Part shown: positions 13,317 to 64,000 of the stretch, in pieces | How the letters are laid out: each line of letters opens with the position of its first letter | Numbering within the stretch: position 1 is the stretch's first letter | NCBI GenBank assembly: GCA_015229005.1 | Contig: JADGCL010000002.1 | Location: 12,577-76,576, forward strand | Length of the DNA stretch: 64,000 nt | Direction: 5' to 3' | From: Magnetococcales bacterium | GTDB lineage: Bacteria; Pseudomonadota; Magnetococcia; Magnetococcales; JADGCL01 | The notes under the pieces: generated by a model | Told to the model about the DNA's origin: nothing | The model's database searches: none | What the model saw: the letters and a program-made list of their open reading frames with translations, nothing else | Position numbers and translations under genes: made by a program

Positions 13317-13395
13317 CGCGAGATCTCCTTGCATAAGTGCGTCAGTATCGGCGATTCCATCGGTCCGTCGCCCGGTCGATGCCGGGAGCTCCCGA

Positions 13396-38234: not shown

Positions 38235-38669
38235 GGTCTTCCGACTCTCCGATAGAAGTTTCGGACCTTGGGGCCTTGCCCCCTCCACTTCGGTCCACCG
38301 GCCTGCAGGTCTCTCTCTGTGATTCCGATTCCAGTCGATCTCTCCAATGATTCAATGCAATCGCTTCCCACTCTTTCCGGCTCCGCTCTTCCGGGACCCT
38401 CCCCTGGCCGATCCCCCCCTGCAATCCTCTCGTTGTAATCTACAGAAAGTCTTTCTATTCACATACCGTGCCGATAATTTTTACCTGAACAATCCACCCG
38501 TTTCCCACTTCCCCGGGCCAAAATTGCCCCCTCCGCGCCTTCCGTCCAACCTTCCCTTCCCCCTTCTCTTCGGGAGCGGAAAAATTTTCCGCCCCCGTCG
38601 TCGCTTCTTTACCGGCGGGGTCGGGAAAAGGGCACAACCGGCCCCCTCCCCGACCCGACCACCGGCAAA

Positions 38670-41552: not shown

Positions 41553-41590
41553 GAGCGTGTTCCTTCTCGAATCCTTATTGTCCCGATGAA

Positions 41591-42157
41591 TCAGCCAGCC
41601 TGCGCCAAACGGATAGGCCTGGAGGTTGTTTTTCTCTGACCCGCTGCCACCTGGGTCCCCTCGTCAAGCCCCCGCTGCCGGGCCCGCTGCCGGGTCCGCT
41701 CCCTGCCGGCTTCCTCAACAAACTGACCCCTCAGCTCCTCGGGAATCAGGAACTGCCTCGGGGAATATTCCTTCAACAGAATCTGCCGCCCGTGCCGGTT
41801 GGCGATGTTCACCACCACCGGCCCCGCCAGATTGGTCCGCATCTCCTCCGGGTGACCCTCCGGGATCGTCACCAGACTGAAGATCTCCACATCCTCGCTC
41901 CGGGCCAGCCCGATCGCCTGGACATCCTCGTCCTGGATGGAAAACTCCAGGTCGGCGAAGAAGTCGAACGGATTGACGACGATGAAGGAGATCTCCGGCT
42001 CATCCACCGACTGCAACCAGAAGAACGAGGAGCCCTCCCCGTAGGGAAAGAGGAGAAATCTCCGGCTCATCGGAAAACCGAGCAAGCCCTCGTCCAGGCA
42101 GATGATCTCTTCCTGATCGTATTCCAGTGTCCCGAACCGGGTGCCGTGAATTTCCAT
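41591..42157 (-). CDS. fliW: Flagellar assembly factor FliW (copy 1; alternative start 42184)
   Basis: Same motifs as the 37740-38234 paralog; follows flgL. Confidence 0.92.
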   Translation of the reverse strand: MEIHGTRFGTLEYDQEEIICLDEGLLGFPMSRRFLLFPYGEGSSFFWLQSVDEPEISFIVVNPFDFFADLEFSIQDEDVQAIGLARSEDVEIFSLVTIPEGHPEEMRTNLAGPVVVNIANRHGRQILLKEYSPRQFLIPEELRGQFVEEAGRERTRQRARQRGLDEGTQVAAGQRKTTSRPIRLAQAG

Positions 42158-42190
42158 GACCGTCTCTCCATTCCCGCGTTTCATGCCCGC

Positions 42191-43387: not shown

Positions 43388-43402
43388 CGCCGTCTCCCGG
43401 GC

Positions 43403-47262: not shown

Positions 47263-47513
47263 ATCGCGCCCGGAAAGAGGATAGATCTCCTGCAAAAGGA
47301 AGGAGCTCCATGACGGAACCGTCAGATCAAGTCCCTCCCTGGAAGACTCTTCCCGTCCATCAACAGGCCAACGAGGGAGAGACCCCCATCCTGGAGAATG
47401 ACCCGGCAAAGGTCAACACCGACCGCCGCCGGACAAACCCGCCCCGAAAGGAGATGAATCGGGCCAGGGGATTGCGGTATGATGGCAACCGCTTGCCACC
47501 GGAACGGATCATG

Positions 47514-47573
47514 TCGGGGGCTTCGCCCCCGAACCCCCACTGGGGGGCGGCAAAGCCTCCCCCCAGACCCCCC
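47514..47573. repeat. REP-like palindromic element related to those at 5275-5417
   Basis: GGGGCTTCGCCCCCGAACCCCCACTGGGGGGCGGC...AGCCTCCCCC aligns with the copy at 5352-5417. Confidence 0.75.
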
Positions 47574-47601
47574 AGCCCCTTTTGGGAAGTGGGAAGTGCT
47601 T

Positions 47602-48423
47602 ATGACGCCCCCCGGAGATCCGGTCGACTCCTACTCGCGACTCGGCGCCGGAGTCTACGAAGACGCGGTCAACAAGAGTCTCCTGCACTACGGGGAGGCG
47701 AGTCGGGAGTTCCTGGAGGGGCTCTGCTGGCGGCCCGGGGAGCGCCGCCTCCTGGACATCGGCTGCGGCACGGGGATGCTCTTCGATCTCCTCGGAGAGA
47801 AACTGGCCGCGTTGGGCATCACCGCCCTGGGGATCGACCCCGCCGCCGGAATGTTGGCCATCGCCCGGGAAAAACACCAGGGAAAACCCCATCTCACCTT
47901 TGCGGAGGGTTCCTTCGAGCGGATCCCGCTCCCCGACGACGAGGTCGACCGCATCGTCTCGGTCTTCGCGCTCCACTGGGTCCCCGATATCGCCGCCGCG
48001 GCCCGGGAGATGGCCAGGGTCCTCAAAAAGGATGGGGAGGCGGACCTGATCCTGATCGCCAAGGGGGACGGCGCCAGGTTTCACAAGGCGGTGAGTCAGG
48101 CCCTCCGCAAACATCTCTCCTTCGCCGAGATCATGAAGACGACCACCATGGTCCGCAGCGTCGACGAGGCAAAACTGCGCCTGGCGCTGGAACCCCTGAT
48201 CGCGGGAAGAGAAAGCCTGATCCGGACCCGCGAGCGCGTGGTCCATGCCAGCTTCGAGGAGCACATGCGCTGGTGGCAGGCGCGGGCGGCCACGGTCTTC
48301 GCCACCGTCCGGGACAAGGAGAAGTTCCTCGGGGATCTCCGCGAGGAGTTGGAAAAAACGGCCACGGATCAGGGGATTCCCTTCGATTCGGTCACCATCA
48401 CCGTGCATGTGGGAGCAGCCTGA
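47602..48423 (+). CDS. Class I SAM-dependent methyltransferase
   Basis: LLDIGCGTG, GIDP..GML, FALHW, RVLKKDG. Confidence 0.9.
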   Translation: MTPPGDPVDSYSRLGAGVYEDAVNKSLLHYGEASREFLEGLCWRPGERRLLDIGCGTGMLFDLLGEKLAALGITALGIDPAAGMLAIAREKHQGKPHLTFAEGSFERIPLPDDEVDRIVSVFALHWVPDIAAAAREMARVLKKDGEADLILIAKGDGARFHKAVSQALRKHLSFAEIMKTTTMVRSVDEAKLRLALEPLIAGRESLIRTRERVVHASFEEHMRWWQARAATVFATVRDKEKFLGDLREELEKTATDQGIPFDSVTITVHVGAA

Positions 48424-48426
48424 ACC

Positions 48427-48651
48427 ATGAAACGGGAAGAGATCGTCGAACGGTTGAAGGCACGATTGGCAAAGGAGAAGATCGTCATCCGCGAGGAGAC
48501 GGATCCCCTCGATCTCGACTCCTTCCTGATCGTCGAACTCATCGCCTGGGCCCAGGACGAGCTGGGGATCGCCCTGGATGTGGCGGCAATGGATTTTTCG
48601 GTCTTTGCCAGTTTCGACGCCCTCGCGGAACACATCTTCGACACCCAGTGA
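48427..48651 (+). CDS. Acyl carrier protein-like protein
   Basis: 74 aa, acidic; LDS phosphopantetheine-site motif (DLDSFLIVEL); 3 nt after the methyltransferase stop. Confidence 0.75.
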   Translation: MKREEIVERLKARLAKEKIVIREETDPLDLDSFLIVELIAWAQDELGIALDVAAMDFSVFASFDALAEHIFDTQ

Positions 48652-48678
48652 GCCGGGCGCGGCGCAAAACCGGGCCAT

Positions 48679-49662
48679 TCAGGGAACGGCGACCCTCGCC
48701 AGGAGTTCGGCGACGAAGCGATCCGCCGTCACCCCTTCCGCCTCCGCCTCGTAGGTCAGGATCAGGCGGTGGCGCAGGACCTCGAACGCCACCGCGTGGA
48801 AATCCCCGGGGGTGACGTAGTCGCGCCCCGAGAGCCAGGCGTGGGCCCGGGCGCACCGGTCCAGGGCGATCGTCGCCCGGGGGCTCGCCCCGTAGCGGAC
48901 CCAGCCCGCCAGCTCGCTCCCGAAGGGTGACGGATCCCGGGTCGCCAGGACCAGACGCACCGGATAGGACTCGAGGGCGGGGGCAAGATGCACCTCCAGG
49001 ACCTGCCGCCGGGCGGCGAAGAGGGTCTCCTGGGTCACGACCGGCGGCGGCAGGAGCGCCGTCGCGTCTCCGGGGGCGGCCAACGCCGCCAGCGCCTCGC
49101 CCCGGGCGAGCCGCAGGATCTCCGCCTCCGCCCCGGCCCCGGGGTAGTCGATCCGGACCTTCATGAGAAACCGGTCGAGCTGGGCCTCGGGCAGGGGGTA
49201 GGTCCCCTCCTGCTCGATCGGGTTCTGGGTCGCCATCACCAGAAAGAGCCGCGGCAGGGGATGCGTCTCCTGCCCCACCGTCACCTGCCGCTCCGCCATC
49301 GCCTCCAGCAGGGCCGACTGCACCTTCGCCGGCGCCCGGTTGACCTCGTCGGCAAGGACTAGATTGTGGAAGACCGGTCCCGGACGGAACCGGAACGACC
49401 CCTCCTCCGGGCGATAGACCTCCGTCCCCACCAGGTCCGACGGCAGGAGATCCGGGGTGAACTGGATACGGTGGAAATCCCCCTCCAGGGAGGCGGCGAG
49501 CGCCCGCACCGCCCGCGTCTTCGCAAGCCCCGGCGCCCCCTCCACCAGAAGATGCCCATCGGCCAGGAGGGCCACCAGCAGGGAGCGGATCAGCCCCTCC
49601 TGACCGATCACCTGCCGTTCCAGATGTTCCCGCAACGCCCGCAAGGCTTCCTGTCCCGACAC
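48679..49662 (-). CDS. MoxR-family AAA+ ATPase (start uncertain)
   Basis: GHLLVEGAPGLAKT, RIQFTPDLLPSD, LADEVNRA, ATQNPIEQEGTYPLPEAQLDRF, GASPR. Confidence 0.95.
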   Translation of the reverse strand: MSGQEALRALREHLERQVIGQEGLIRSLLVALLADGHLLVEGAPGLAKTRAVRALAASLEGDFHRIQFTPDLLPSDLVGTEVYRPEEGSFRFRPGPVFHNLVLADEVNRAPAKVQSALLEAMAERQVTVGQETHPLPRLFLVMATQNPIEQEGTYPLPEAQLDRFLMKVRIDYPGAGAEAEILRLARGEALAALAAPGDATALLPPPVVTQETLFAARRQVLEVHLAPALESYPVRLVLATRDPSPFGSELAGWVRYGASPRATIALDRCARAHAWLSGRDYVTPGDFHAVAFEVLRHRLILTYEAEAEGVTADRFVAELLARVAVP

Positions 49663-49945
49663 CGTCTTCACCCCTCCGCCAGCGTCCACCCGCCCCCACC
49701 CTCCCAATCAGGGATTATTTCATGCGGCCGGCGGCGGCTGTCAACCCATCCCCCCAGGAAAAAAACGGCACCGATTTTTCCCCATCCGGGGTGTCGCCGC
49801 GACCTTCACCCCCTGTAGACTGGCGCCGACGCCCGACCCCGCTCCTTCGAGGGAGCCCGACCGGCCCTCTCCCCGAGCCTCACGCCCCCGGACCGTCCCG
49901 CTAGGACCGTCCGGGAACAGGGGAAGCGGCCCAACCTCTGGACCG

Positions 49946-50831: not shown

Positions 50832-51134
50832 GTGAGTGCTGCCGTAACGTTCGACACCCATGCCTACATCAAGGAACTGAAGGCCGCCGGGTTTACCGAG
50901 GAACAAGCCGAAGTCCAGTCAAAAGCCCTCTCCAGCATCTTCAGGGCGAACCTGGATGAGTTGGCCACAAGACGGGACCTCAAGGAACTGGAGCTGTCCA
51001 CCAAGGGAGATTTGCGGCAGCTGGAAACCAAGATCGCCGAGGTCAAGGCCGAACTCATCAATTGGATGTTCGGCGTGGCCGCCGGGCAGGCGATGTTCAT
51101 CATCGCCATCCTCAAAATGTTCCCATCCCGCTGA
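50832..51134 (+). CDS. DUF1640/CCDC90-like coiled-coil protein (paralog of 24394-24699)
   Basis: FDTHAYIKELKAAGFTEEQAE, LATRRDL; C-terminus WMFGVAAGQAMFIIAILKMFPSR identical to the other copy. Confidence 0.85.
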   Translation: MSAAVTFDTHAYIKELKAAGFTEEQAEVQSKALSSIFRANLDELATRRDLKELELSTKGDLRQLETKIAEVKAELINWMFGVAAGQAMFIIAILKMFPSR

Positions 51135-51147: not shown

Positions 51148-51708
51148 CTAGCGAATCACCGCATGCAGGCGGATCGCGAGTACCCGGGGGGACATTTCCC
51201 CGAGCTGCTCCAGGAGCCCTTCCAGGACGGAAACCTTCTCGTCATCGCGAAAGAACTCCCGGACCTCCTCGCTGAAACGGTCGCTCCCGACCTCCCGATT
51301 GGCGAGATCATCGGCCAGGAGATACCCCTCCGCCGTCAGGCTCGGCAGTCCCACGTCCCCGGTCACGACCCCTTCGCGCCGCTTCTCCTCGAAGAGGGGA
51401 CCCCATTCGCGATAGTCGAAGCGGCCCCCCGGCTCCCCCCGCCCCCGCGGCCTGGCCCGCGTCATCGGCATCCGCGCCGCCACCTCCCGCAGCAGGGGCT
51501 CGCGACGCATCCAGCGGACCAGGAGACTCAGGCAGTCACGGGCAAAGAAATGCCCACTCCCCCGATTTCCCTGCCAGGAACGCAAGGCATAGAGCAGGAT
51601 CGCCTGCGGCAGGCTTACCGGTCTCTCCCGAAAATCAAACGTAAACGTGTGCCGCCGCCCCCCTTCGCGGTATGTTGCCAGATCCTCCGGCGCAACCAGA
51701 CTCCCCAT
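51148..51708 (-). CDS. Hypothetical protein, possible Panacea/SocA/YwgA-like winged-helix domain
   Basis: GGAGAGGTGA upstream of ATG 51708; FDYREWGPL and SLTAEG motifs; co-oriented with the RADAR-like cluster. Confidence 0.55.
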   Translation of the reverse strand: MGSLVAPEDLATYREGGRRHTFTFDFRERPVSLPQAILLYALRSWQGNRGSGHFFARDCLSLLVRWMRREPLLREVAARMPMTRARPRGRGEPGGRFDYREWGPLFEEKRREGVVTGDVGLPSLTAEGYLLADDLANREVGSDRFSEEVREFFRDDEKVSVLEGLLEQLGEMSPRVLAIRLHAVIR

Positions 51709-51854
51709 CGTCACCTCTCCTCCCACTCTCCCATCGACACCCAGACCGGAGCTCTCCCGGAATCACCACGAAGGTGGTCTCGCGAAAATCATGCCGGCCC
51801 GACCCCTTTTGTCAAACTCCCGATCGCATCGTGCAGCAGACAAACAACCAGGGA

Positions 51855-52361
51855 TCAGGGCCTGCGATGATGCTCCTCGTAGGCATCCAGAAAGCCGTCC
51901 AGGATCTCTCTGATCCGCTTCTCCAGGTCGGTGGAGGACGAACCCTTATTGAGATAAAAATGACAGCCTCGCTTTCCGATCTCGAAACCTTTATTGTTCA
52001 CTTCAGAATTGGCCGTCAATATGCCAGCCTGGGTTATAGGCGACCTGTCGAGAACGTGATCGACCAGGAAAACCCCTTCCTCACCAACAGGGACCTCCGG
52101 GTAATGGGGGTCATTCTGGGCACGCGCCAAGCTGAGATCCTGGTCGATGATCGCGAGTGCCAAACACAAGTCCGGGGTTGCGATCGGTCCCTTCACGACC
52201 TCCTTGAACTTTTCGAGAACGGCAAGAGTGTCAACGATCCCCCGGGTACGAATGGGATCCACCCCGGTGATACTCTTCAGGGTCACCCGAAGGCTTTTGA
52301 AAGATTCATCGTCATCCTCGACGACCAGGACCTTCAGCCCCGCATAGGTACTCTTGGCCAT
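51855..52361 (-). CDS. Stand-alone response regulator receiver protein (copy 2)
   Basis: VLVVEDD, LAIID (phosphoacceptor), ILTA, FYLNK; 168 aa; GGAGGA RBS. Confidence 0.85.
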   Translation of the reverse strand: MAKSTYAGLKVLVVEDDDESFKSLRVTLKSITGVDPIRTRGIVDTLAVLEKFKEVVKGPIATPDLCLALAIIDQDLSLARAQNDPHYPEVPVGEEGVFLVDHVLDRSPITQAGILTANSEVNNKGFEIGKRGCHFYLNKGSSSTDLEKRIREILDGFLDAYEEHHRRP

Positions 52362-52497
52362 GCCCCATCCTCCTCCGCTGTCGACAAGATCAATGCCTCC
52401 GGTGAAACTCACCCGACCTGGAGCCGGATCTGAATGGTACCCCCTCTCCTCCCCATCACACTCCCGATCGCATCGAGAACAGGCGAACAACCAGGAA

Positions 52498-53004
52498 TCA
52501 GACCGTATGATTATAATCTTTGAAGGCATCCAGAAAGCCGTCCAGGATCTCTTTGATCCGCTTCTCCAGGTCGGGGGATGACCAATTCTTGTCGAAATAA
52601 AAGTGGCCCCCGCCCCGTCCGGTTTCAAAGCCTTTATTGTCCGACCCATAATATGCCGTCAGAATCCCGACCTGGGTTACCGGCAATCTGGCGTTAACAT
52701 GCGGAACCAGGAAAACCCCCTCTTCACCCACAGGGACATCCTGGTAATAGGGTTCATTCTGGGCACGCGCCAGGCTGAGATTCTGGTCGATGATCGCGAG
52801 CGCCAAACACAAGTCCGGGGTTGGGATCGGCCCCCTCGCGACCGCCTTGAACTCATCGAGAATAGCGAGGGTATCAGCAATCCCCCGGGTACGAATGGGC
52901 TCCACCCCGGTGATACCCTTCAGGGTCACCCGAAGGCCGTCGAAGGAATTGTCGTCATCCTCGACGACCAGGACCTTCAACCCCGCGTAGATACTCTTGG
53001 CCAT
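52498..53004 (-). CDS. Stand-alone response regulator receiver protein (copy 1)
   Basis: VLVVEDD, LAIID, ILTA, FYFDK; 168 aa; AAAGGAGG upstream. Confidence 0.87.
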   Translation of the reverse strand: MAKSIYAGLKVLVVEDDDNSFDGLRVTLKGITGVEPIRTRGIADTLAILDEFKAVARGPIPTPDLCLALAIIDQNLSLARAQNEPYYQDVPVGEEGVFLVPHVNARLPVTQVGILTAYYGSDNKGFETGRGGGHFYFDKNWSSPDLEKRIKEILDGFLDAFKDYNHTV

Positions 53005-53052
53005 TCCCTCATCCTCCTTTGCCGCCGACAGGATCGACGATCCCCGTGAAAC

Positions 53053-55248
53053 TCACCCGACCGGGAGTCGGATCTGGATGGTGCTCCCCTCTCCCGGTTC
53101 GCTTCGAACCACCGCCAACTCCCCCCCCATCGCCGTCACGAAGGCCTGTGCAGTCACCGCCCCGATGCCCCTCCCCTCCGGCTTGGAGGTGAAACCCACC
53201 CAACCAAAATCGGCCCGGGCCTGAGCGTCCATGCCGATCCCCCTGTCCACCACCTCCACAATGGCCCAGCGCTCCCCCAAGCGGCGTACCGAGACCCGGA
53301 TCTCGTTCATTCGCCCGGACTGTGAAGCCTCAACGGCATTGTCAAGAAGAATCCTTAAAGACTGGAACAGGCTTAACCCGTCGAACTTGAAGTGGCAATC
53401 TTCTCCGGGATGAAACGAAACCGACCAGGAACGAGGGTCCGGTTCACGCCGGAACCTGGCCACCGCCTCTCCGACAAAAGCGGAGAGACTGGCCCGCTCG
53501 CCCACGCTGCGTGAGAGAAAGGTCTGGTAATCGCGGAAATTGGCGACCATCTCTTTTACGTGCCGGAGGCCTGTCCGCGCCGACTGGCAAAGCCTGACCA
53601 CGTCCTCCCTTTGGTCAGAGTAGTCGATCCAGAGGGGCTCTCCGGCAAAGGCCCGATCCAGGAACCGGTGATTGACCAGGGTATCAACCGGCCTCAGGCC
53701 GTTGATGACCTCATGGGTCAGGCTGCGATGGGCATCGCCGAGGAGTTGGCTGTAACGCAACTTGTCGAAGGCGGTGGTGGCATCCCAGAGATCGAGGACC
53801 GTATTGCCGGCACACCCCAGGGCAAGAAACAGGTAGGAGAGAAAGATCCACGGAAAATCCTTCGCCACCGGATAACTCTGCATCGCGAAAGGACCCAGGC
53901 ACGCCAGGATCAGGGCACTGACGAAACACCCCCACACCACCTGGTTGAACCGGTGTTCCCTCTCCTCCCTGCCGAACTCCCGGGCATGGAACCCTCGTCC
54001 CAGAAGCCGGTCTATCAGGAACGCGAGAAGCCGCGATCGACCAACTCCCCGACCAAACAAGCCCCATAACAGACCAAAAAGGAACACGGACAGGAGGAGG
54101 ACAATCAACGCCTGGACCCACGGCTCGAGCCTCAGGGCACCCAATCCCAGGAAGATTCCCTGAAAACCAAAAGGGGAGATAAACAGGAAGACAAACCCCA
54201 GGAGTTGGTCTTGCCCGGTCAGGATGAATTCCCGGTCACAGTGGATGCGGACCCTCACCGCCAGGGCGGCGGCCAGGAGAAAAAAGAAGAGCGAGACGAC
54301 CACGCCCCAGGCATGCAGCAACCCCGCATCACTCTCCAGATAATAGCCGGAAAACTCTCCCGCCAATGCCTTGGGATCCCAGCCCAGATCGAACCAGCCC
54401 AGATTGAACACGCCCAGATCGACAAGGGCCTGGCCCATCACCAGAAACGAGAAAATACACAAAATGACCCACGCGCCGGCGAGGAGAACGGACGGCATCA
54501 GGGATTCCTCATTCGACCCCGGTCTGCCCGGAATCCTGGCGGTGAAAACAAACCACGGCACAAAGAGCCACTCCCGGAAGAAGTTCAGGTTGCCGAACCG
54601 ACCATCGGTATCCCGAAACTCCCGCCACCACCCCTTCCCCCGGCCTGAGGTGAACCAGCCCGGATAGAAGAAGGAGAGGAGAAGCGCCGTGAAAGGGAAG
54701 GGAAACATCCCCAGAAAAAAGAGCCCGGCCCGATTGGAAAAATAGGCCGCCGCCACCTTCACCGCTGCCTTATCTGCCGCTGCCTCCGCCGAAGCCTTGG
54801 CCAGCACCACCTCCGCCGACGCCGCCACCTCCGCCGTCACCTCCGCCATCGCCGACGCCCCCGCAGCCGCCGCAGCCGCCGATTTCACCGCAACAACCTT
54901 GGCAGCCGCCGACTCCGCCACTTCCAATGCCAATTCTCCCTCACCCTGCAACAGACGACCGCCGGAGAGGCAGAGAATGCCGATCCCCAACGAGAGGAGG
55001 GTGCCCGCAGCCGCCAGGTGGTACTCCTTGCGATGGCGACTGCCGACGCGGTTGACCAACTCGTAGAGAAACAACTGCTGCACCGAGAACGAGAGGCCGA
55101 CCAGGGCCGTGCCGATCCCCAGGAAGGGCAAAGTCCGCCGGTCCCCGAAGAACCAGAGGGAGAAACCGAAGATCAGGAAAAAGCCCGCCATGAAGAGAAG
55201 CTGCGCAGGGGCCAGCGCCACGCCCACTCTGTGATCAGACCCCATCAT
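53053..55248 (-). CDS. Polytopic membrane sensor histidine kinase
   Basis: About ten or more hydrophobic segments; H-box SLTHEVING, N-box LLDNAVEA, G1 DRGIGM, F/G2 GFTSKPEGRGIG; ATG overlaps the upstream TGA (TGATG). Confidence 0.88.
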   Translation of the reverse strand: MMGSDHRVGVALAPAQLLFMAGFFLIFGFSLWFFGDRRTLPFLGIGTALVGLSFSVQQLFLYELVNRVGSRHRKEYHLAAAGTLLSLGIGILCLSGGRLLQGEGELALEVAESAAAKVVAVKSAAAAAAGASAMAEVTAEVAASAEVVLAKASAEAAADKAAVKVAAAYFSNRAGLFFLGMFPFPFTALLLSFFYPGWFTSGRGKGWWREFRDTDGRFGNLNFFREWLFVPWFVFTARIPGRPGSNEESLMPSVLLAGAWVILCIFSFLVMGQALVDLGVFNLGWFDLGWDPKALAGEFSGYYLESDAGLLHAWGVVVSLFFFLLAAALAVRVRIHCDREFILTGQDQLLGFVFLFISPFGFQGIFLGLGALRLEPWVQALIVLLLSVFLFGLLWGLFGRGVGRSRLLAFLIDRLLGRGFHAREFGREEREHRFNQVVWGCFVSALILACLGPFAMQSYPVAKDFPWIFLSYLFLALGCAGNTVLDLWDATTAFDKLRYSQLLGDAHRSLTHEVINGLRPVDTLVNHRFLDRAFAGEPLWIDYSDQREDVVRLCQSARTGLRHVKEMVANFRDYQTFLSRSVGERASLSAFVGEAVARFRREPDPRSWSVSFHPGEDCHFKFDGLSLFQSLRILLDNAVEASQSGRMNEIRVSVRRLGERWAIVEVVDRGIGMDAQARADFGWVGFTSKPEGRGIGAVTAQAFVTAMGGELAVVRSEPGEGSTIQIRLPVG

Positions 55249-58200
55249 CACCCCCAGCGCTGGTCGGCCCGGTAGGACTCCTCGGTCCAATCGAAGAAGA
55301 GATTTCCCCGGCGGCGGATGCCGTCGAGCCACTCGCGGACGCGGGCCGGGGCGACCCCGTGATCGACGGTGGCCGCCTTTTCCAGGTGCCGATACTCGGC
55401 CGCCAGGGTGGTATTGAAAATCCCGGGATCGTCGGTATTGACGCAGAGGTCCAGCGGACCGCCGCGGATCCCGAAACGATTGTACCGGGCCCCCGGGGCA
55501 AGGAGCGCCGCCTCGGGCGGCGACCAGCGAAAGATCGGGTGTTCGGCGTAGGAGCGGATCGGCGCGATCGCCAGGTTGGAGGAGGGGCAGACCTCGACGG
55601 CCACCCCGGCCTTGGCCAGACGCGCCATCAGGTCATCCTGGATCACCTCCCAGGCCTCGGCCTCCAGGGGAGTGATTCTTTCGTAGGAGAAGTCGTTCTC
55701 TCCCCCATGTTCATCGTAGTGAAGCGAGAGGAGCCGATTGGCATAACCCTGATACCGCTCCCAACCTGCGGTCGGCGCCTCCTCGGCGGCGCACCCCCGC
55801 CCCGCAGTCGGGAGTGCGCCCTCCCACTGCCTCCCTGAGACCGGGCGACACTGCTCGTTCCGCAGCCGGTAGCGCTCCCGCCGGCGGGCATTGACCAAAG
55901 AGAAAAAGTGCCGGTCCTCCCGTTTCATGATCCACTCGGTCTGCCCGGCCAACTCCGCAAACCGCCTGAGCGAGGCCTGACCGATGGGGTCCCAGTGCAA
56001 GGCCTCGTGCCCCCGGCGCAGACAACTCTGCATCGGCAGATCGCAGCGGTCCCAGCAGGGACGAAAGGCCTGGTGCAGGGCCTCCCGGGAGAAGGCCCGA
56101 AACCGCCAGAAGCGGTACCACAGCTCCGGGTGCCGGGCCTCGGCCTCCGGCCCGTGCAGCACCTTGGCCAGATCGCGAACCCGATATTCATAGACCGGCA
56201 ACAAGGCGGCCGCCCTGGGCCAGCGCGGCAGGATACGAACCAGCATCGCCCAGGCCCAGACCATGTTGTCGAAATACTCTTCGCGGGTCACCAGGATGTT
56301 CGGATGGCGTTCGAGCCACAGCGTCGGGGCGAGCCCCAGGGCCAGGGCGTGACCGATCCGATCGCCCGGCCCCAACTCACAAAAGGTCAACGCCTCATCG
56401 ACCGCACGGATGCCGGTCAGGAGGCAGGAGAAATCCTCACCGGCATGGACATGCACCGGAAGGCGCCGCCGCCAGGCCGTCCGCCATTGGCGGCTGTGAA
56501 GCGGCGAGCGCTCCTCCGCCTGCCGGTGGGGACGCCGCAGATAGAGGATGCAGGGGGAGAAAAACTCGATCGGCAGATCCGGCTCCACCCCGGCGACATC
56601 GATCCCCGCAATCAACCGGGTCATATCCAACGGCCCGGCCTCGCATCGGCGCCGCCAGGACCGCCAGGCCCCCCCCGGCATCTCCCTCCCCCCGCCGAAC
56701 ATCGGCAGGAAGCGGGGCGGCAGACGCCGCGACTGCGGACTCGACAGAAAGGCATCCAGCTCCAGGGTCTGCCGTTGAATCTTCTCCCAGCGGCGCCCCC
56801 GTTCCAACCGCCGCTCCTCGAGGGCCTGGCGACACGGGTCCCCCGACGGCGGCAGCCAGTTCTCCAGGGTGCGAATGTAGTGCAGGGTGAACTGGAACCC
56901 CCGGGAACAACCGCTCCCCTTGCCCAACCCCGTCGTCGCGTAGGCGACCGGCGGCTCTCCCGGAGGGATCGCCTCGCCACTCCCGTCCGCCTCCCGTGCC
57001 GCCCGATGCAGGATCTCCATCAATGACCCCAATCGTTCAACGTCGAGGAAGGTATCGAAACCGATCCGGGCATTGATCTTGTCCACCCCGGCGCGATACA
57101 TCCCCCGCGCCCGGTCGAGGCCGTTGTTGCCGCGCAGAACCTCCTGGAGTTCCGCCTGATCCTCGGCGTTGCGCAGGGCACTGTCGTAAAAATCGGAAAA
57201 CCAGCGCAGCCCGGTGCCATGCCCCATCACCATGTAGGAACGCAGGATGCCGATCCCGTGAATAAAGAGGCGCACGAAGGGATGCGCCTCGGCCAACCGG
57301 CGCTCCATCATGGAGAGATGACACACCACCAGGGTGGTCAGGAGAAAGGCGGAAAACTCCCCCTCGCGGAACTGGGCCTCCGCCTCCCGCGAGAGCATCC
57401 GGAGGCGCTCCAGGATCTCCTCCGGGATCCGCCCCGAGCCCTCACCCCGCAGGCCACCCAGCTCCCGGACCCAGGGACAGGGCTGGCGGCTCCCCCCCCG
57501 CAGGACCAGCGCCACCTTGTACCGCCCCTCCCGGCACAACCCCGCACGATCCTGCCGCCAGGGCAGGAGCCGGAGAAAGCGGTAGGCGATCCGCACCAGG
57601 TCGATGACCTGGATGATCCGGAGCGTCCCGGCGTTGAGGCATTGAAATTCGGGGATGTTCGGCAATAGCCGCTGAAACCCGGGCGCACGCCACTTCCCGG
57701 GCACCGAGGGGGCCCGGAGAATCGCCGCAAGCTGCGTCGCCGGCTGGATGGCGCCACCGAAATGGACGTGGTTGTCGGCCAGGGGGAGGTCGCTGTCGGC
57801 CTCGGCCAGGAAGGTCAACTCGTGGACCTTGCGGCAATACCCCACCACCTGCGGGAAGCTCAACCGATGCTGGTGAAGACGGTCGGCCAGCTCATGCCCC
57901 ACCACCACGAAAGGGTGGAGATGGTCCAGGGAATCCCGGTTCGCCCGCGAGTGGGCCATCTGCCGCTCCACGGTGTTGCCCTGGAGGCGATAGTGGCGGC
58001 CAAAGACCGCAGCAAGAAATTCATAGCCATAGTGAAAGGGAAAACCATCCAGCGGAGCCCAACCCACACGCTCGTCCCTCTCCAGCGCCCGTTGAAGGTC
58101 GTCCAGGCGATAGCTGTCCGAGGCGTAGTCACGCATCACCGCGAGCGCCAGCTCCCCGCCCGGATCGGCGCCATCCCGCCCCCGCCGCCTCCACTCCCGC

Positions 58201-58322
58201 TCGAACCGCTCCAGGTGGTACGGCTCCCGCGATGCCGCCACCTGCTCAGCCAGCGCCAGCAGCAACCGGTCCGAACGCACCAGCATGATCCCGGGAATGG
58301 CGCTCAGAAACTCCCCGCCCAT
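55248..58322 (-). CDS. rdrB: Large adenosine deaminase, RADAR RdrB-like
   Basis: All ADA catalytic motifs: NHVHFGG, GIDVAG, HAGEDF, DRIGHALALG, EVCPSSN, VNTDDPGIF; 1024 aa; directly downstream of a P-loop ATPase. Confidence 0.8.
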   Translation of the reverse strand: MGGEFLSAIPGIMLVRSDRLLLALAEQVAASREPYHLERFEREWRRRGRDGADPGGELALAVMRDYASDSYRLDDLQRALERDERVGWAPLDGFPFHYGYEFLAAVFGRHYRLQGNTVERQMAHSRANRDSLDHLHPFVVVGHELADRLHQHRLSFPQVVGYCRKVHELTFLAEADSDLPLADNHVHFGGAIQPATQLAAILRAPSVPGKWRAPGFQRLLPNIPEFQCLNAGTLRIIQVIDLVRIAYRFLRLLPWRQDRAGLCREGRYKVALVLRGGSRQPCPWVRELGGLRGEGSGRIPEEILERLRMLSREAEAQFREGEFSAFLLTTLVVCHLSMMERRLAEAHPFVRLFIHGIGILRSYMVMGHGTGLRWFSDFYDSALRNAEDQAELQEVLRGNNGLDRARGMYRAGVDKINARIGFDTFLDVERLGSLMEILHRAAREADGSGEAIPPGEPPVAYATTGLGKGSGCSRGFQFTLHYIRTLENWLPPSGDPCRQALEERRLERGRRWEKIQRQTLELDAFLSSPQSRRLPPRFLPMFGGGREMPGGAWRSWRRRCEAGPLDMTRLIAGIDVAGVEPDLPIEFFSPCILYLRRPHRQAEERSPLHSRQWRTAWRRRLPVHVHAGEDFSCLLTGIRAVDEALTFCELGPGDRIGHALALGLAPTLWLERHPNILVTREEYFDNMVWAWAMLVRILPRWPRAAALLPVYEYRVRDLAKVLHGPEAEARHPELWYRFWRFRAFSREALHQAFRPCWDRCDLPMQSCLRRGHEALHWDPIGQASLRRFAELAGQTEWIMKREDRHFFSLVNARRRERYRLRNEQCRPVSGRQWEGALPTAGRGCAAEEAPTAGWERYQGYANRLLSLHYDEHGGENDFSYERITPLEAEAWEVIQDDLMARLAKAGVAVEVCPSSNLAIAPIRSYAEHPIFRWSPPEAALLAPGARYNRFGIRGGPLDLCVNTDDPGIFNTTLAAEYRHLEKAATVDHGVAPARVREWLDGIRRRGNLFFDWTEESYRADQRWG

Positions 58323-58331
58323 GACGAACCC

Positions 58332-61300
58332 CTACCCGACCGGCGGTGTGTAGGGCACTCTGAAAAGGCGGTGCAACTCATCGACCTGATCCCCATAACC
58401 GAGGCGCTTGAGTTCGGCGAACACCCTGGCGTAGGGAAGCTCGGGATCCTTGAGAATCCGCGTCAGAAGCCACAGCTCCGACGGCCCGAGGGTGCGGGAC
58501 ACCCGGGAAAATCTCTCGGAAACCTCCCCGACCCAACGCCGGAATGCCTCCACCCGGGCGTGAAGATCGGAGCCATACCGCTTCGAGGGTTCCCCCAACC
58601 ACCCGAGGATGGTCTCCCGGGTGATCCGATTTTTCTCGACATGGATGAAAAAGAGGGGCTCCCCCGCCCCCTTCCCGGCGAGCAGGACCCGGACCAGGGG
58701 GTGACACCTCAGGGCATCGTACAAAGAGACGAGGCGATCCGTCCGCCGGCAGCCCCGACAATCCCCCGACGGCACCTCCCTGTCAAGCTCTGGACAATTG
58801 ACCCGGACCGCCGCCGGTATCACCCTCGCCGGATCAGCACCCTCGTCTCTGCAGGACTTGTCGATATCCAGGGATGCCGCGTTCACCCAGCCCCGCTTTT
58901 CCACGATCGCCGCCGCATTGAGAAGACCCAGGACGTAGAACCGCAGATAGGTCACAATATCCACCGAGTGACCGCCTTCGGTCACCAGGAGACGAACCTG
59001 GGCATCCAGATCCTTGATCTGAGAGGAAAAGACGCTCAGGAGATGGTAAACACGGACTGCCGTCCAGCGAAGCGCCAACCGCGCCAGCCGCTCCCGCCAC
59101 TCCCGCAGGCCAACACTCCCGGAGAGCCGCCGGGCCAAATACTCTTCAAGACCTTCCGATCTGGAGCCCTGCTTCTCATCCTCCAGACCCCCGCAAGGGC
59201 CCTCTTTCACCCCGGCTTCGGATTCCCGCGAAACCGGCTCCCCGGCCTCCACCTTCGCTCCCCCGGAACCCCCTCCCCCCTGGGAAGACCCGGTCCAGGG
59301 CGATTCCCGGTCGAACAGGCGGAGGGCATCGACCATTCCCGAGTCGTTCCGGGGCTGAAAAAGGGAGAAGAGCAGGGCGAAGAGGCGATCCAGGGAAATC
59401 ACCGCCGGTTCCGGAGGCCTGGTGGAAGAGCCGCAGCTTCCCACCAGTTCCGCCCAAAACCACTCCGATGGCAAAAGCGATCCCTTCCCTTCCATCTCTT
59501 TCCACCGTTCCGAGTCCAACACCAGAGAGATGGGATCCCGGTTGCGGCGGCGCTCGCCGCCGGCATCCGGAATCAGAAACGGCAGGCGATCACCGAGATC
59601 AGGATCCTCCTCCAGCACCCACCGGATCATGGCCCAGGGATCGAAGGCCTCCCCCATGGCCTCGACCTGCCTCTCCAGGGAAAGAACCCCCCAAAGATCG
59701 AGTCCCTCCTGTTCTTTCTGACGATAAGCTGCCGACGAGGCCTCCCCGGCCTTCAACACGACGGCCCGCATCCGCGACCACAGGCCCTCTCCATGGACCA
59801 CCACAGCGGAACCGTTCTGCCGGACCGACAGAGAAGAGGCGATCCCCGCCGCGAGGAGATCCTGCCACCACCAGGAGGCCTCCGACCGGCAGGCAAGCGG
59901 CTGCCAGGCAACAGGCGATGTGAACATTCTCCGGACCCATTGCTCCTCCTTCTCTTCCCCCCGCATTTGCCTATCGCCGGAAAGCCCCTTATACCACCCC
60001 GCCAGTGCCGGTTCCGCCGGGAGTTTCTCCTTCCGAGTTATCACATCCCGTCCCACTCGCTTCAGCAAGCTGTCTATGCCGGCCAACAGGTCAAAGACCT
60101 CCCCCTCAATCGCGTGGAGCGCCTGGATCAGATTGCGCAGCGAACCGTCAAACAGCGACTGGGATGGAGAGCCGGCGTCGGCCAATCCCACACCGAAGTG
60201 GATCACCGCCCGCTCCAGGGCGAAATAGTTCTCCATATGGATGGCATACGTCTGCCGTTTATCCCCCGTACCCCGCGCGAATTTCAGGATCCACTCCTTC
60301 CAGCCCCCCGCCGGGTGACGATGGCGACCGATATAGATACGGTTATGGAGCGGAAACACCTTGGAAAAATAGCCCTCCACAAACTGACTTACATGCCGTT
60401 TGAGAGAACCCTCCGGATCCTTCACCGGCGAGAGGGACTCCACCCCGGTCAGGTGCGGAGGAAAGAGGTGGCTTCCCGGGGAAATACCCAGATTCTTCGT
60501 CTGGAAATCGTGCCACTTGTTGTCCTTGAAATTGTCGATCTGACCGGAGACCACCGGCAGGAGGCGGGGAGAGTTCAGGTAGCGGCGAATGATATCAAGG
60601 AGATGGTGGGCATGGTCGGGGGCCATATCGAGGTCATCGATGGGCAACACCAGGAGATCATTCCCGGTCGCCCGGGCAACGGCGTCAAAGAGATTATGCA
60701 ACGCCTGCTCCAGGCGGTGACTGTCCTGGCTGTAGCCGATGGTGTCGATCCCCTTGGTCTCACCGGACTTCTGGATGCTGTACCAGATCTGACCGACATC
60801 CTCCATGGCCTTGTCGATCCGGCCCTCCGCCTCCTCTTCCCGATCCGCCCACTGCTTCCCACCCGAATGCGCCCCGCACCGGCCCCCGCCACCGGCATGA
60901 GGCCCGCCACGACCGGCCCCCCTCCTCAGGGCGAGTTGGCCACCTTCATAAACATGGGCAACCATCGAGGGAATCAGATAGGAACTCCTCTCGATCTCGA
61001 TCAGGGTGGGATCGAACGGTCGCAGAAACAACACCTTCCGGAACGACTCCGATTCGCTCTCGCGGGAGCAGCCCCCCTCGCTCCGGTTCTGTTTTTTCAG
61101 ATACGACTCGAGATTCATCAGGAGATGCGTCTTCCCCATCCCCCGCCCGCCATCCAGAAAGATGGTGTTCGACGAACGGCAATCGTGGATATCGTCCAAC
61201 TCTTCCGGACGCCTTTCGTGCAGAAAACACAACGCCTGGCGGATGATCCTTCCGATCTGCTCGTAGAGATCGGGATAGAGGATATGGCCCTCTTCCCTGA

Positions 61301-61382
61301 CCACATTGACCAGGCTCTCCGAGACCCACAACTCCCGTATCCCAGCCGATTCCGCCGCTCCTGCCCCGTCGCCTGCCCCCAC
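58332..61382 (-). CDS. rdrA: Large P-loop ATPase, RADAR RdrA-like (GTG at 61382 with AGGAGG RBS; alternative start 61481)
   Basis: NTIFLDGGRGMGKT (Walker A), FDPTLIE, LVLPIDDLDM (Walker B), IRRYL, KVFP; 9 nt before the deaminase start. Confidence 0.75.
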   Translation of the reverse strand: MGAGDGAGAAESAGIRELWVSESLVNVVREEGHILYPDLYEQIGRIIRQALCFLHERRPEELDDIHDCRSSNTIFLDGGRGMGKTHLLMNLESYLKKQNRSEGGCSRESESESFRKVLFLRPFDPTLIEIERSSYLIPSMVAHVYEGGQLALRRGAGRGGPHAGGGGRCGAHSGGKQWADREEEAEGRIDKAMEDVGQIWYSIQKSGETKGIDTIGYSQDSHRLEQALHNLFDAVARATGNDLLVLPIDDLDMAPDHAHHLLDIIRRYLNSPRLLPVVSGQIDNFKDNKWHDFQTKNLGISPGSHLFPPHLTGVESLSPVKDPEGSLKRHVSQFVEGYFSKVFPLHNRIYIGRHRHPAGGWKEWILKFARGTGDKRQTYAIHMENYFALERAVIHFGVGLADAGSPSQSLFDGSLRNLIQALHAIEGEVFDLLAGIDSLLKRVGRDVITRKEKLPAEPALAGWYKGLSGDRQMRGEEKEEQWVRRMFTSPVAWQPLACRSEASWWWQDLLAAGIASSLSVRQNGSAVVVHGEGLWSRMRAVVLKAGEASSAAYRQKEQEGLDLWGVLSLERQVEAMGEAFDPWAMIRWVLEEDPDLGDRLPFLIPDAGGERRRNRDPISLVLDSERWKEMEGKGSLLPSEWFWAELVGSCGSSTRPPEPAVISLDRLFALLFSLFQPRNDSGMVDALRLFDRESPWTGSSQGGGGSGGAKVEAGEPVSRESEAGVKEGPCGGLEDEKQGSRSEGLEEYLARRLSGSVGLREWRERLARLALRWTAVRVYHLLSVFSSQIKDLDAQVRLLVTEGGHSVDIVTYLRFYVLGLLNAAAIVEKRGWVNAASLDIDKSCRDEGADPARVIPAAVRVNCPELDREVPSGDCRGCRRTDRLVSLYDALRCHPLVRVLLAGKGAGEPLFFIHVEKNRITRETILGWLGEPSKRYGSDLHARVEAFRRWVGEVSERFSRVSRTLGPSELWLLTRILKDPELPYARVFAELKRLGYGDQVDELHRLFRVPYTPPVG

Positions 61383-61782
61383 GCCGTCCTCCTCTCTCCA
61401 CCCTGCCAAACCACCTTCCACGTCCGGAAGAGCGCCACACCCGGCCTCGCTCCCGAACCGCCGCCGGCGAGTGTATACCACACACGGGAGATTTCAAACA
61501 CCCGAACATGTCTTTCATCGATCGATAATCTGACTTAAAGATTCGCTGTAAGGGTGATCCGTAAATCCGTGGGACAAAGAAGACCAACGGCAGCACAAGA
61601 CGTTATCCTGACAATTCAAACGGATAATAACAAATCCCACCCGCGCCCGAAAACCCCGGCGCAGGATGACGGGCACCTCCGAGGAAAAAACAACGGGGTG
61701 GAATCGTAGTTACGGAGGCAGGAGAGAGAGCGGGTCCCGCCGCCCGGGAACGGACGGGACCCGATACATGCGGGAGACGGGA

Positions 61783-64000
61783 TCACGGCGTCAGGGTGAT
61801 GCTCCCCGAACCGATCGTCACACTCGAAACCAACCCCGGGAAATAATAGTCCACGAACTGCGTGGTCGGGATGCTCTGGCTGGCCGTGCTGTCGAAGGCC
61901 AAATCCCCGTCCCCGGCGCGGTTCAGGGTGTTCTGCTGAGCCTCCCGCGCCCGTGCCAGGGAAGGATCACCCAGGGAACTCTCCAGGACGTGCAGCGGCG
62001 GGTTGGCCCCGCCCCCGGTGAAGAAGGTCAGTGACCCCCCGCTGCTCAGACCCGAGAGGACACTGTTATAGTTGGAGATCAACGAGTTCAAGCTCATCGT
62101 CACATCGGGCAGAATGTTGAGGTAGAGGATATCGACGGTCGAATTGGCCGTATCCACACTCACCTGATTGCCGGAAAGAACCGGGACCAGATTGACACAG
62201 ACGTCGGTGGTGAAGTTTGCCGCATAGGGCGCCAGGGTATCGAAGAGGGTCTGCCAACCGCTCTGCACCGTCGCCGGCAAACGGTCGTAGATGGAGCCGA
62301 TCACCCCGACCCGGCCCGTCACCGTGATCTGTGACGGCGCCACGCTCACCCGAAGCTTCTTGACCACCCCCGTCACGTCGTAGGCGAAGGTCCCCCCCGA
62401 CGTGAGCTGCCGGTCCAACTTGGCCAACAACAGGTAATAGAGATTCGCCTCGGTCAAGGTCACCGGCGTGCCACTGCTGAGCGACGCCATGGCCGCAGTG
62501 TAGATCCCCTTCGCCGTCGAGGCGATGGTCCCGGACGATTCGGTCACCGTGGTCACGCTGTCGGCGCTGCAACTCTTGCCGGTGACCGCCAGGGTGAAGT
62601 TGGTGGCGGTCGTGATCCCGCAAGTCGAATCGGTGGCAGTGATCGTGATCGAATAGTTGCCCGTGGTGGTGAAACGGCTGGCATCGGCCACCACCAACTG
62701 CTGGTTGCCGGTGCCGCCAATGGCCAAACCACCGGTGCCATCCGTTGTCAGAACGTAGGTAAAGGTGGCGTTGGCCGCCGAAGGATTGACCGAGGTGATG
62801 CCCGCAACCACCGTCCCGGTCGGGCTGCCGGTGTAGAACGAGGTGGCATTCAGGGTGGTCGTCAGGGTCGGATTGACGATCGTCAAGGTGATGGTCTTGC
62901 TCAAAGGCAGAGAGTCCTGGATCCCGGTCGAAACCACCGTAACGCTCTTGGTGGTGCCAGCCGTCAAGGCCCCGATAACCGTCAGATTGGAACCCGACAG
63001 GGCAAACAGACCACCCGCCGAATCGGTCAGGGTATAGGTGTGGGTGTTGCCGACATCGGGGTCAACCGTCGTCAAGGCCCCGACTACCGTCCCGTTGACG
63101 CTGCAGGCGTAAGCCTCAGTCGCATTCAGGGTGATGTCGGAAGGGGCATCGGCCACCGCCGTGACGGCAATGGTGGCATTGACCGTACTCCCCCCGAGAC
63201 CACTGCCGGCATTGCTCGTGGAGGCCTGCACCGTGAAACGGAAGGTCGTGCCGTCCGCCGTGTTCAAATTCGCCGAAGGCGTAAACTTAAGCCCCGCATT
63301 CCCCTCGGCAAAGGTGACGAAAGTCCCGTCGGTGATCTGCGTCGTGCCGTTGTTCTTGTAAAGTCGACCACCCAGAATCCCGGTGATCTTGAAGTGCGTC
63401 ACCTCCGCAGAGTCGTCGACGTTGCGGCTGATCACCAGACCGCTCGTCGATTGGGTGTCCTCGTTGGTCGACGCACTCGTCACCGACGGCGTGTCGGCAA
63501 CCGCCGTGACCGTGATCGAAGCCCTCGCAACCCCCCCCCCCAGACCCGCAGCACCGGCACTGAGCGAGGCCTGAATCCCGAAACCAAAAGAATCCCCCTT
63601 GCCCGAGTTCAGGTTGGCCGATGGCAGGAACTTCAACCCCGAGGTCCCCTCGGTATAGGTGATGAACTCATTGTCGCCGATGGCCGTGGTCCCGTCGTTC
63701 TTGTAGAGCGTCCCCCCGGTGATGCCCGAAATCTTGAAATGGGTGACCTCCGCACCGTCAACAAGATTGCGGCTGATGACCAGACCCGAGGTCGATTTGG
63801 TGTCTTCGTTCGTCGTCGTCGCCGTCACCGTCGGGGTATCGGCGACGCTGTTCACGGTGATCGCCGCCGTCACCGTACTGCTCCCCACCGCCGCCGCCGA
63901 GGTCACCCCAGCCACAGTGAAACCGAAATTGTTGCCCCCATCACTGTTCAGGTCGGCGGCCGGAGTGAACTTCAGCCCGGCATTACCCTCGGCAAAAGAG
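61783..64000 (-). CDS. Large surface adhesin with tandem ~115-aa Ig/cadherin-like repeats (5' end outside window)
   Basis: Frame open to the window edge; repeated ADTP..TNEDT.STSGLVISRN..AEVTHFKI..GLKF.P.ANLN units; cadherin-like APSDITL..TVDPD; Thr/Ser/Gly-rich. Confidence 0.85.
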   Translation of the reverse strand, partial: SFAEGNAGLKFTPAADLNSDGGNNFGFTVAGVTSAAAVGSSTVTAAITVNSVADTPTVTATTTNEDTKSTSGLVISRNLVDGAEVTHFKISGITGGTLYKNDGTTAIGDNEFITYTEGTSGLKFLPSANLNSGKGDSFGFGIQASLSAGAAGLGGGVARASITVTAVADTPSVTSASTNEDTQSTSGLVISRNVDDSAEVTHFKITGILGGRLYKNNGTTQITDGTFVTFAEGNAGLKFTPSANLNTADGTTFRFTVQASTSNAGSGLGGSTVNATIAVTAVADAPSDITLNATEAYACSVNGTVVGALTTVDPDVGNTHTYTLTDSAGGLFALSGSNLTVIGALTAGTTKSVTVVSTGIQDSLPLSKTITLTIVNPTLTTTLNATSFYTGSPTGTVVAGITSVNPSAANATFTYVLTTDGTGGLAIGGTGNQQLVVADASRFTTTGNYSITITATDSTCGITTATNFTLAVTGKSCSADSVTTVTESSGTIASTAKGIYTAAMASLSSGTPVTLTEANLYYLLLAKLDRQLTSGGTFAYDVTGVVKKLRVSVAPSQITVTGRVGVIGSIYDRLPATVQSGWQTLFDTLAPYAANFTTDVCVNLVPVLSGNQVSVDTANSTVDILYLNILPDVTMSLNSLISNYNSVLSGLSSGGSLTFFTGGGANPPLHVLESSLGDPSLARAREAQQNTLNRAGDGDLAFDSTASQSIPTTQFVDYYFPGLVSSVTIGSGSITLTP

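Follow-up and report, generated by a model that had tools for sequence, protein, structure and literature searches.

A kinase-linked RdrA-RdrB operon of Magnetococcales is a candidate subtype of the RADAR anti-phage system

Introduction

What could switch on a RADAR complex that is encoded in one operon with two-component signalling genes? This question is raised by six genes at positions 51148-61382 of a 64,000-nucleotide stretch of DNA (the window; assembly GCA_015229005.1, contig JADGCL010000002.1, forward-strand positions 12,577 to 76,576) from a Magnetococcales metagenome-assembled genome (MAG) that is 78.6% complete. In RADAR, heptamers of RdrA attach to a dodecamer of RdrB, and within minutes of infection RdrB converts ATP and dATP to ITP and dITP; what activates the system is an open question, the RdrA C-terminal domain having been guessed as the sensor by the authors (PMC9994260). 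RADAR subtypes have been described with rdrAB alone and in Csx27-associated and SLATT-associated forms (PMC7699616). In Detocs, infection is sensed by a histidine-to-aspartate (His-Asp) relay that serves a defence aimed at ATP, and a stand-alone receiver has been proposed to act as a phosphate buffer (10.1101/2023.01.24.525353).

A first-pass annotation of the window had proposed that its RdrA-like ATPase and RdrB-like deaminase form a RADAR variant with a membrane histidine kinase (HK), twin receivers (REC1 and REC2) and a winged-helix protein (ORF6). Here we show that this gene order is conserved in distant genomes, with intact catalytic sites and a linkage that is inherited together. The conserved five-family operon may represent an undescribed RADAR subtype, in which RdrAB is coupled to a dedicated two-component module and ORF6, a reading to which we give a probability of about one in two.

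Results

A divergent RdrA-RdrB pair heads the operon

The locus consists of six co-oriented and closely packed open reading frames (ORFs) on the minus strand, RdrA-like, RdrB-like, HK, REC1, REC2 and ORF6 (Table 1). The gene layout of the first-pass annotation, with its 9-nt gap, TGATG overlap and 48-nt gap, was read from the sequence exactly as claimed, and the catalytic motifs that it had listed for the ATPase, deaminase, kinase and receivers were all recovered in alignments of homologs. The RdrA-like gene starts with a GTG codon at 61382, preceded by a GGAGAGAGGAGGA stretch, and its open frame extends to 61481.

The RdrA-like protein matched the RdrA models of PADLOC (1.1e-31) and NCBIfam (9e-41, with 140 bits against an equivalog cut-off of 600 bits), and a profile built from three RdrA sequences (A6) matched the solved E. 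coli RdrA structures 8hr7/8fnt at 2e-17 over the ATPase domain. Its Walker A (GGRGMGKT, G78-T85) and Walker B (LVLPIDDLDM, V245-D250) motifs are conserved in all three aligned RdrAs. The RdrB-like protein likewise matched the RdrB models of PADLOC (1e-69) and NCBIfam (2.3e-112; 377 bits, cut-off 800 bits), Pfam A_deaminase (1.2e-12) and the solved E. coli RdrB 8fnw (7e-25), with the active-site stretches HAGEDF and DDPGIF aligned, and its HxH (H185/H187), HAGE (H626/E629) and DD (D964/D965) motifs are invariant in the three RdrBs. It is also 30% identical over 442 aa to the annotated rdrB of an Aliivibrio plasmid, whose locus is a plain two-gene rdrAB; the arrangement of rdrA followed by rdrB on the same strand is common to the window, to the two related loci described below (L016 and L026) and to that plasmid. 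The matches to PADLOC, NCBIfam and solved structures, together with the intact motifs, uphold the earlier assignment of these two genes and confirm the pair, as judged from homology, as a divergent RdrA and RdrB of the RADAR type. We treat the NCBIfam equivalog cut-off, which the RdrBs of a sample of 401 genomes of the phylum passed in no case, as a naming threshold for close equivalents and not as a defining RADAR trait, because proven RADAR systems share only 22-28% identity, with similarity confined to the ATPase domain and the C-terminal part of the deaminase (PMC9994260).

The gene order recurs in distant genomes with unrelated flanks

The order RdrA-RdrB-HK-REC-ORF6 recurs in a second Magnetococcales MAG (G110, locus L016/L027) and in a Sedimenticola MAG of the Gammaproteobacteria (locus L026). 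The recurring loci are conserved at 24-37% protein identity, with values to the window of 27-29% for RdrB, 24-26% for HK and 27-30% for REC. In both, HK and REC overlap by 4 nt, and REC and ORF6 are separated by gaps of 8-14 nt. The three loci have entirely different flanks, comprising an MFS transporter and V-ATPase-like genes in L016, PIN, RadC, CMAS-like methyltransferase and IS66 genes in L026, and the repeat-protein gene, DUF1640 and GDT1 in the window. Since the order recurs at such low identity and among unrelated flanks, the linkage is not a matter of chance, and the association of the kinase and receiver with RdrAB is very probably functional. Among the observations that the first-pass annotation named as refuting its proposal was a lack of RdrAB homologs beside such kinase and receiver genes in other genomes; L016 and L026, and probably a fourth contig (see below), contradict it.

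As an aside on L026, its CMAS-like methyltransferase gene (11076-12401) overlaps the ORF6 stop codon by 4 nt and may belong to the operon; an IS66 transposase gene (12796-14349) follows it, and the PIN and RadC genes lie upstream (142-2065).

An exhaustive HMMER search of 1.84 billion proteins returned 11 representatives of the REC family at E<=1e-3, all of them singleton clusters of 163-175 aa without a second domain, which bears out the claim that the receivers lack an output domain. When 185,579 species genomes were scanned for motifs with the REC alignment, only two loci were found, the L016 contig and L026, both carrying RdrAB and HK. Among 56 genomes of the taxonomic order, the REC profile found its family in two only, at 191 and 182 bits in the window genome and at 199 bits in G110; the next best receiver scored 31 bits. 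In all three available contexts, the REC family adjoins RdrAB. Further searches added no locus: 31 pattern matches of a single-protein RdrB search in genome contigs, as well as 198 in metagenome contigs and 31 in viral contigs with the REC alignment, were all left unconfirmed, the REC of L026 had no match among plasmids, and word-based protein searches with REC and with ORF6 returned the query loci alone. With the RdrB profile, the word-based search gave at least two proteins at E<=1e-20.

The closest REC relative, P0004 (42% identity), is a single-contig Logan protein from a contig of 16,523 nt. The RdrB relative P0018, the closest among the matches listed (39% identity, 98% coverage), is also a single-contig Logan protein from a 16,523-nt contig, and the two have the same source. 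The proteins of the three loci with directly observed context show the same kind of contig-size agreement (86,667, 167,783 and 19,956 nt). P0018 and P0004 therefore probably belong to a fourth kinase-linked RADAR locus. The RdrB tree groups the window with P0018 (SH-aLRT 100) and L016 with L026 (97), and the REC tree displays the same two groups and the same deep split. Constraining the three HK-linked RdrBs to one clade improved the log-likelihood by 3.07 units over that of the free search (p-AU 0.585).

RdrB homologs were detected in 9 of the 401 genomes of the phylum sample, all nine in the window's own order. L017-L025, from eight other Magnetococcales genomes, hold very divergent, kinase-less RdrB-like genes, which the RdrB tree places in deep, long-branched groups of their own; G062 and G190 have two RdrB places each. 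A kinase at L021 was considered as a further case and set aside; its match covers the HATPase region only (E 1e-4), and it is situated upstream, ~5 kb past RdrB.

The kinase carries a family-specific membrane domain

HK matched HATPase_c of Pfam at 3e-16, and its H-box residues (H512/E513/N516/P520), N-box (DNAV), G1 box (DxGxG) and G2 box (GxGxG) are invariant in the three HKs. The H-box has the form HExxN...P and is of the HisKA type; the homolog in L016 gave a weak HisKA match (4.8e-4, under the cut-off). A Kyte-Doolittle scan placed about nine hydrophobic segments at residues 17-485, followed by H512 and the ATPase core, such that a polytopic membrane domain of ~480 residues is separated from the phospho-His by ~25 residues, in which no Pfam sensor domain was matched. 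The membrane part received no assignment in Pfam, PADLOC or Atlas. Searched with the HK profile, the genome of the window yielded a single full-length match, this HK itself (1076 bits), while 38 other kinases matched at their catalytic end only, with at most 48 bits.

These features are reminiscent of intramembrane-sensing kinases with CheY-like receivers, with which the window pair shares the many membrane segments, the lack of a Pfam-matched extracytoplasmic or cytoplasmic sensor domain, the HisKA-type H-box with its HATPase_c core, and a partner receiver with Asp/Asp/Thr/Lys but no output domain. In contrast to them, its membrane domain could be assigned to no described family and has no second copy in its own genome, its receiver departs from CheY-like receivers by a DQNL motif, an insertion and a C-terminal helix, and the pair has been seen nowhere but beside RdrAB. 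We read HK as a putative intramembrane-type sensor, and its input would therefore most likely be a membrane event.

A low-complexity, Ala-rich insert of ~55-60 residues lies between membrane segments 2 and 3 of HK (residues ~105-170, about 54740-54935) and is absent from the kinases of L016 and L026. The maximum of AT skew (0.436, at 54-55 kb) falls in the kilobase of this insert.

The receivers are divergent, and REC2 is a local duplicate

The acidic pair D16-D18, the phospho-accepting D73, T116 and K139 are invariant in all 13 rows of the REC alignment. The phospho-Asp sits in a LALAIxDQNL motif, of which the DQNL that follows it is family-specific, and the family also has an insertion of ~15-20 residues after the phospho-Asp (before the next conserved Gly) and an additional C-terminal helix. 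We call REC1 and REC2 receivers because two homologs, L016:4414-4923 and L026:10004-10513, pass the Pfam Response_reg cut-off, and because the family profile matches 155 solved receivers, e.g., CheY, Spo0F and PhoB. Both are thus predicted to be divergent but complete stand-alone receivers. The notion that REC might be a chemotaxis CheY of the flagellar cluster 6-16 kb away was dropped, as the family is tied to RdrAB elsewhere.

REC1 and REC2 share 71% amino acid and 81.5% nucleotide identity (dS 0.40, dN 0.16, dN/dS 0.41). REC2 keeps all phospho-site residues, as does REC1, and its branch in the family tree is longer (0.41 versus 0.058). The duplicated unit spans ~640 nt and comprises the last HK codons with the stop, the ribosome-binding stretch, REC and ~40 nt past its stop; the HK remnant before REC2 reads IQIRLQVG*, where the live HK end reads IQIRLPVG*. 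The presence of an HK 3' end with its stop codon in the duplicate implies that the duplication postdates the kinase-receiver junction. Twin receivers, which the first-pass annotation had taken as a feature of the system, turned out to be a tandem duplication that is confined to this genome, as L016 and L026 have one REC each. On the minus strand, the duplicated flanks of REC2 cover 52362-52432 (leader) and 51787-51854 (trailer).

ORF6 is a positionally conserved protein of unassigned family

A counterpart of 185-205 aa stands directly after REC in L016 and L026. These two counterparts match each other by BLASTP at 6e-5, and the window ORF6 matches that of L026 at 0.009 only, across a short PxSxxQAxLLY motif. 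No match to ORF6 was found in Pfam, NCBIfam, PADLOC, PHROG or PDB sequences. Its AlphaFold model is weak (pLDDT 54), and none of 68 Foldseek matches in the PDB reached E<=0.001. The nearest structures to its ESM Atlas model (pTM 0.69) are winged-helix regulators of the DtxR/MntR type, at sub-threshold TM scores of 0.35-0.42 by query, and the nearest Atlas feature clusters include ABC-3C middle components (0.87), a lead only. With no sequence family, a weak model and sub-threshold Atlas neighbours, the earlier winged helix-turn-helix (HTH) label found no confirmation. Prediction of a complex between ORF6 and REC was uninformative (score 0.02, mark 0.32) and counts neither for nor against a contact. 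ORF6 was also considered as an Hpt phosphotransfer protein, and this was rejected for want of an invariant His in the three-row alignment.

Boundaries and surroundings of the operon

On its 3' side, the unit is closed by a convergent gene (50832-51134, plus strand). An intergenic region of ~400 nt lies on the 5' side, with a sigma-70-like site at 61497-61470, and beyond it begins the large repeat-protein gene. Pattern scans for promoters and terminators gave no excess over shuffled sequences (promoters, 3 versus 1.6 +/- 1.2). The GC content is 0.564 at 52000-53000, where the receiver genes lie, compared with 0.62-0.70 in nearby kilobases, and no tRNA gene marks an island border in the window.

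The repeat protein (61783-63999, minus strand, running off the window) has 738 or more residues rich in Thr, Ser, Gly and Ala, arranged in repeat units of ~90 residues; neither Pfam nor PADLOC gave a match to it, and its look is of the surface or adhesin type. A flagellar filament and hook-junction cluster (34938-45139, minus strand) encodes FliD, a 960-aa flagellin, a flagellin-N protein and FlgK, the flagellin giving the impression of being long for its kind. A MoxR-type AAA_3 ATPase (48679-49707, minus strand; 1.2e-64) has a second match, at 2e-18, to bpMoxR, a model from MoxR-vWA-beta-propeller ternary systems. It is followed by a long ORF (47509-48678, minus strand) that has no Pfam match and may not be the actual gene, since it overlaps a plus-strand ORF (47479-48423) that matches methyltransferase families.

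Table 1. Features of the kinase-linked RdrA-RdrB operon and its borders in the window.
Feature	Position	Strand	Junction or remark
RdrA-like KAP/AAA+ ATPase, 1016 aa	61382-58332	minus	9-nt gap to RdrB-like
RdrB-like adenosine deaminase, 1024 aa	58322-55248	minus	TGATG stop/start overlap with HK
HK, polytopic membrane histidine kinase, 731 aa	55248-53053	minus	48-nt gap to REC1
REC1, stand-alone divergent receiver, 168 aa	53004-52498	minus	136-nt gap to REC2
REC2, tandem paralog of REC1, 168 aa	52361-51855	minus	146-nt gap to ORF6
ORF6, helical, 186 aa, no family assigned	51708-51148	minus	ATG start; alternative GTG at 51726
Duplicated leader of REC2	52362-52432	minus	HK 3'-end remnant, stop and copy of the ribosome-binding stretch
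Upstream intergenic region, probable promoter region of the operon	61383-61782	minus	Position only

Discussion

We propose that the operon encodes a RADAR complex under the control of its own phosphorelay. The kinase, acting upstream of RdrAB, would read a membrane-level cue of infection and set the phosphorylation state of the receiver, which, being without an output domain, would act by contact on RdrA or RdrB, either directly or via ORF6; RdrA, RdrB and ORF6 are the conserved candidate partners for such a contact. Binding of the receiver would then license or restrain ATP's conversion into ITP and, with it, abortive infection. Considered separately, the step in which the kinase-receiver pair controls RdrAB activity post-translationally by protein contact, perhaps through ORF6, falls just short of an even bet. 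A more specific version is offered only tentatively, in which infection sensing has shifted from RdrA to the membrane kinase and the phospho-receiver is the physical ON switch of RdrA-RdrB. If true, it would make RdrA-RdrB the first supramolecular immune complex whose gating depends on His-Asp phosphotransfer, and a phosphomimetic receiver would provide a phage-free trigger for the study of RADAR activation.

The same genes could also be arranged into a transcriptional circuit, in which the phospho-receiver would dock on ORF6 as a DNA-binding protein and set the expression of rdrAB instead of gating the complex. Most two-component systems act on transcription (10.1101/2023.01.24.525353), ORF6 is kept directly after the receiver with the short gaps of L016 and L026, and the DtxR/MntR-like Atlas neighbours provide leads, if only leads, toward such a role. 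However, these neighbours score below that tool's own thresholds, the AlphaFold model of ORF6 is weak and without a significant Foldseek match, and sequence searches of Pfam, NCBIfam and the PDB yielded no HTH family. Furthermore, the RADAR response is reported to arise within 5 min of infection (PMC9994260), which suits post-translational control better, and we regard the transcriptional explanation as unlikely. Somewhat less likely still is a safety or feedback module without phage sensing, which would either restrain RADAR in healthy cells or read its output (ATP loss, ITP). In the safety variant, the phospho-receiver would be an inhibitor or a phosphate sink, and a drop in kinase activity upon ATP or membrane failure would free the complex. 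Kinase autophosphorylation consumes ATP, the substrate that RdrB removes, and this common need, known from the two families, speaks for such a coupling, as does the HExxN H-box found in all three kinases, a form typical of kinases that double as phosphatases. REC2, as a faster-evolving extra copy, could serve as the sink, and the Detocs stand-alone receiver, proposed as a buffer for stray phosphate, is toxic when its Asp is mutated (10.1101/2023.01.24.525353). The large, family-specific membrane domain of HK nevertheless favours membrane input over a nucleotide-pool sensor, no nucleotide-binding sensor domain was found in HK with Pfam, and the single receiver of the other two loci means that a sink is not a core part of the system.

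A more deflationary explanation, which we hold to be improbable, is that the genes are neighbours without a shared function, either because the kinase-receiver-ORF6 block is a separate mobile signalling or defence cassette with a tendency to insert beside this RdrAB lineage or because the RdrAB-like pair is a regulated nucleotide-metabolism complex and not a defence system. The drop in GC to 0.56 over 52-53 kb fits separate acquisition, the RdrA and RdrB scores lie under the NCBIfam equivalog cut-offs, PADLOC detected no defence genes adjoining the locus in the window, and a kinase-less group is nested among the HK-linked RdrBs in free trees. Against it stand the identical order and orientation of the three loci at 24-37% identity across two bacterial classes, the stop/start overlap that joins RdrB to the kinase, the occurrence of the receiver family next to RdrAB in every available context, and the deep split common to the RdrB and receiver trees; L026, moreover, lies among PIN, RadC and IS66 genes.

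Several results weigh against the operon being a kinase-coupled RADAR subtype. Neither RdrA nor RdrB reaches its NCBIfam equivalog cut-off (NF041743, NF041744). The receiver residues listed in the first-pass annotation are present in 13/13 rows, but REC1 and REC2 themselves have no Response_reg match in Pfam even at E 10, and the fold predicted from a two-row REC alignment is poor (pLDDT 38). None of nine neighbouring ORFs in the window matched PADLOC, and the operon is surrounded by flagellar and housekeeping genes, so that it does not sit in a visible defence island. The proposed survey of RdrB neighbourhoods showed that the linkage recurs, in L016 and L026, but is not common. Among 80 metagenomic RdrB loci, none had an HK, REC or ORF6 match (E<=1e-4) and 65 had RdrA; an RdrB ORF was extracted from 79 of these loci, 41 of which extend at least 3 kb downstream. 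Likewise, just one (L016) of ten RdrB places from the eight other Magnetococcales genomes has a kinase and receiver. The module is thus rare and dispensable for RADAR in general. In the free trees, the kinase-less group (eight metagenomic RdrBs) is nested within the smallest group that holds the HK-linked RdrBs, which implies that the module was gained twice, or was gained once and lost once; the trees do not reject a single clade. The contexts seen directly amount to three loci, all on MAG contigs, with the fourth resting on contig-size agreement, and seven of the 11 REC representatives come without context data. Finally, the direction of the signal, the receiver contact and phage defence itself are, for the window operon, what we infer from its genes.

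Compared with known RADAR systems, the window operon has the same RdrA-type ATPase directly followed by an RdrB-type deaminase, with Walker A/B and HxH/HAGE/DD intact, and the same low identity confined to the ATPase domain and the C-terminal part of the deaminase (PMC9994260). It differs from them in its accessory genes, which are HK, the receiver(s) and a helical ORF, where the known ones encode a small Csx27 or SLATT membrane protein; as the first-pass annotation had stated, the subtypes described in the available text of PMC7699616 (Csx27, SLATT or no accessory) include none with a kinase. HK, REC and ORF6 match no RADAR accessory in PADLOC or Pfam. It also differs in its sub-cut-off RdrA and RdrB, and in being known from its genes alone. 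Tetratricopeptide repeats serve as the sensor of DtcA, the Detocs kinase, whereas that of the window kinase is a polytopic membrane domain. Detocs, whose domains include tetratricopeptide repeats, pairs DtcA with the stand-alone receiver DtcB and the receiver-effector DtcC, and thus resembles the window operon in combining a phosphorelay with an ATP/dATP-attacking effector in one operon and in having a stand-alone receiver that lacks an output domain (10.1101/2023.01.24.525353). In the window, by contrast, the effector is a separate two-protein machine, RdrAB, that is not fused to a receiver, and no receiver-effector fusion of the DtcC type is present in any of the three loci. HK and REC had no PADLOC match at E<=0.01, in a release whose content of Detocs models was not checked. 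A literature search turned up no publication that connects RADAR with a histidine kinase, supplements being outside its scope; Table S1 of PMC9994260 (270 RADAR systems) may list such loci.

The weight of these findings is limited by rarity, as three or four loci are at hand, all from uncultured genomes. If the operon is indeed a RADAR subtype, it would bring a fourth kind of accessory to the system and provide, after Detocs, a second and differently built case of two-component signalling in anti-phage immunity, again directed at the ATP pool. A RADAR variant with its own sensor would offer mutable control points, namely the kinase His, the receiver Asp (through phosphomimetics or BeF3-) and ORF6, which would make the activation of RdrA-RdrB testable without knowledge of the phage trigger. 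This suggests that the main interest of the operon lies in the genetic handles that it may provide on the question of how RADAR is activated.

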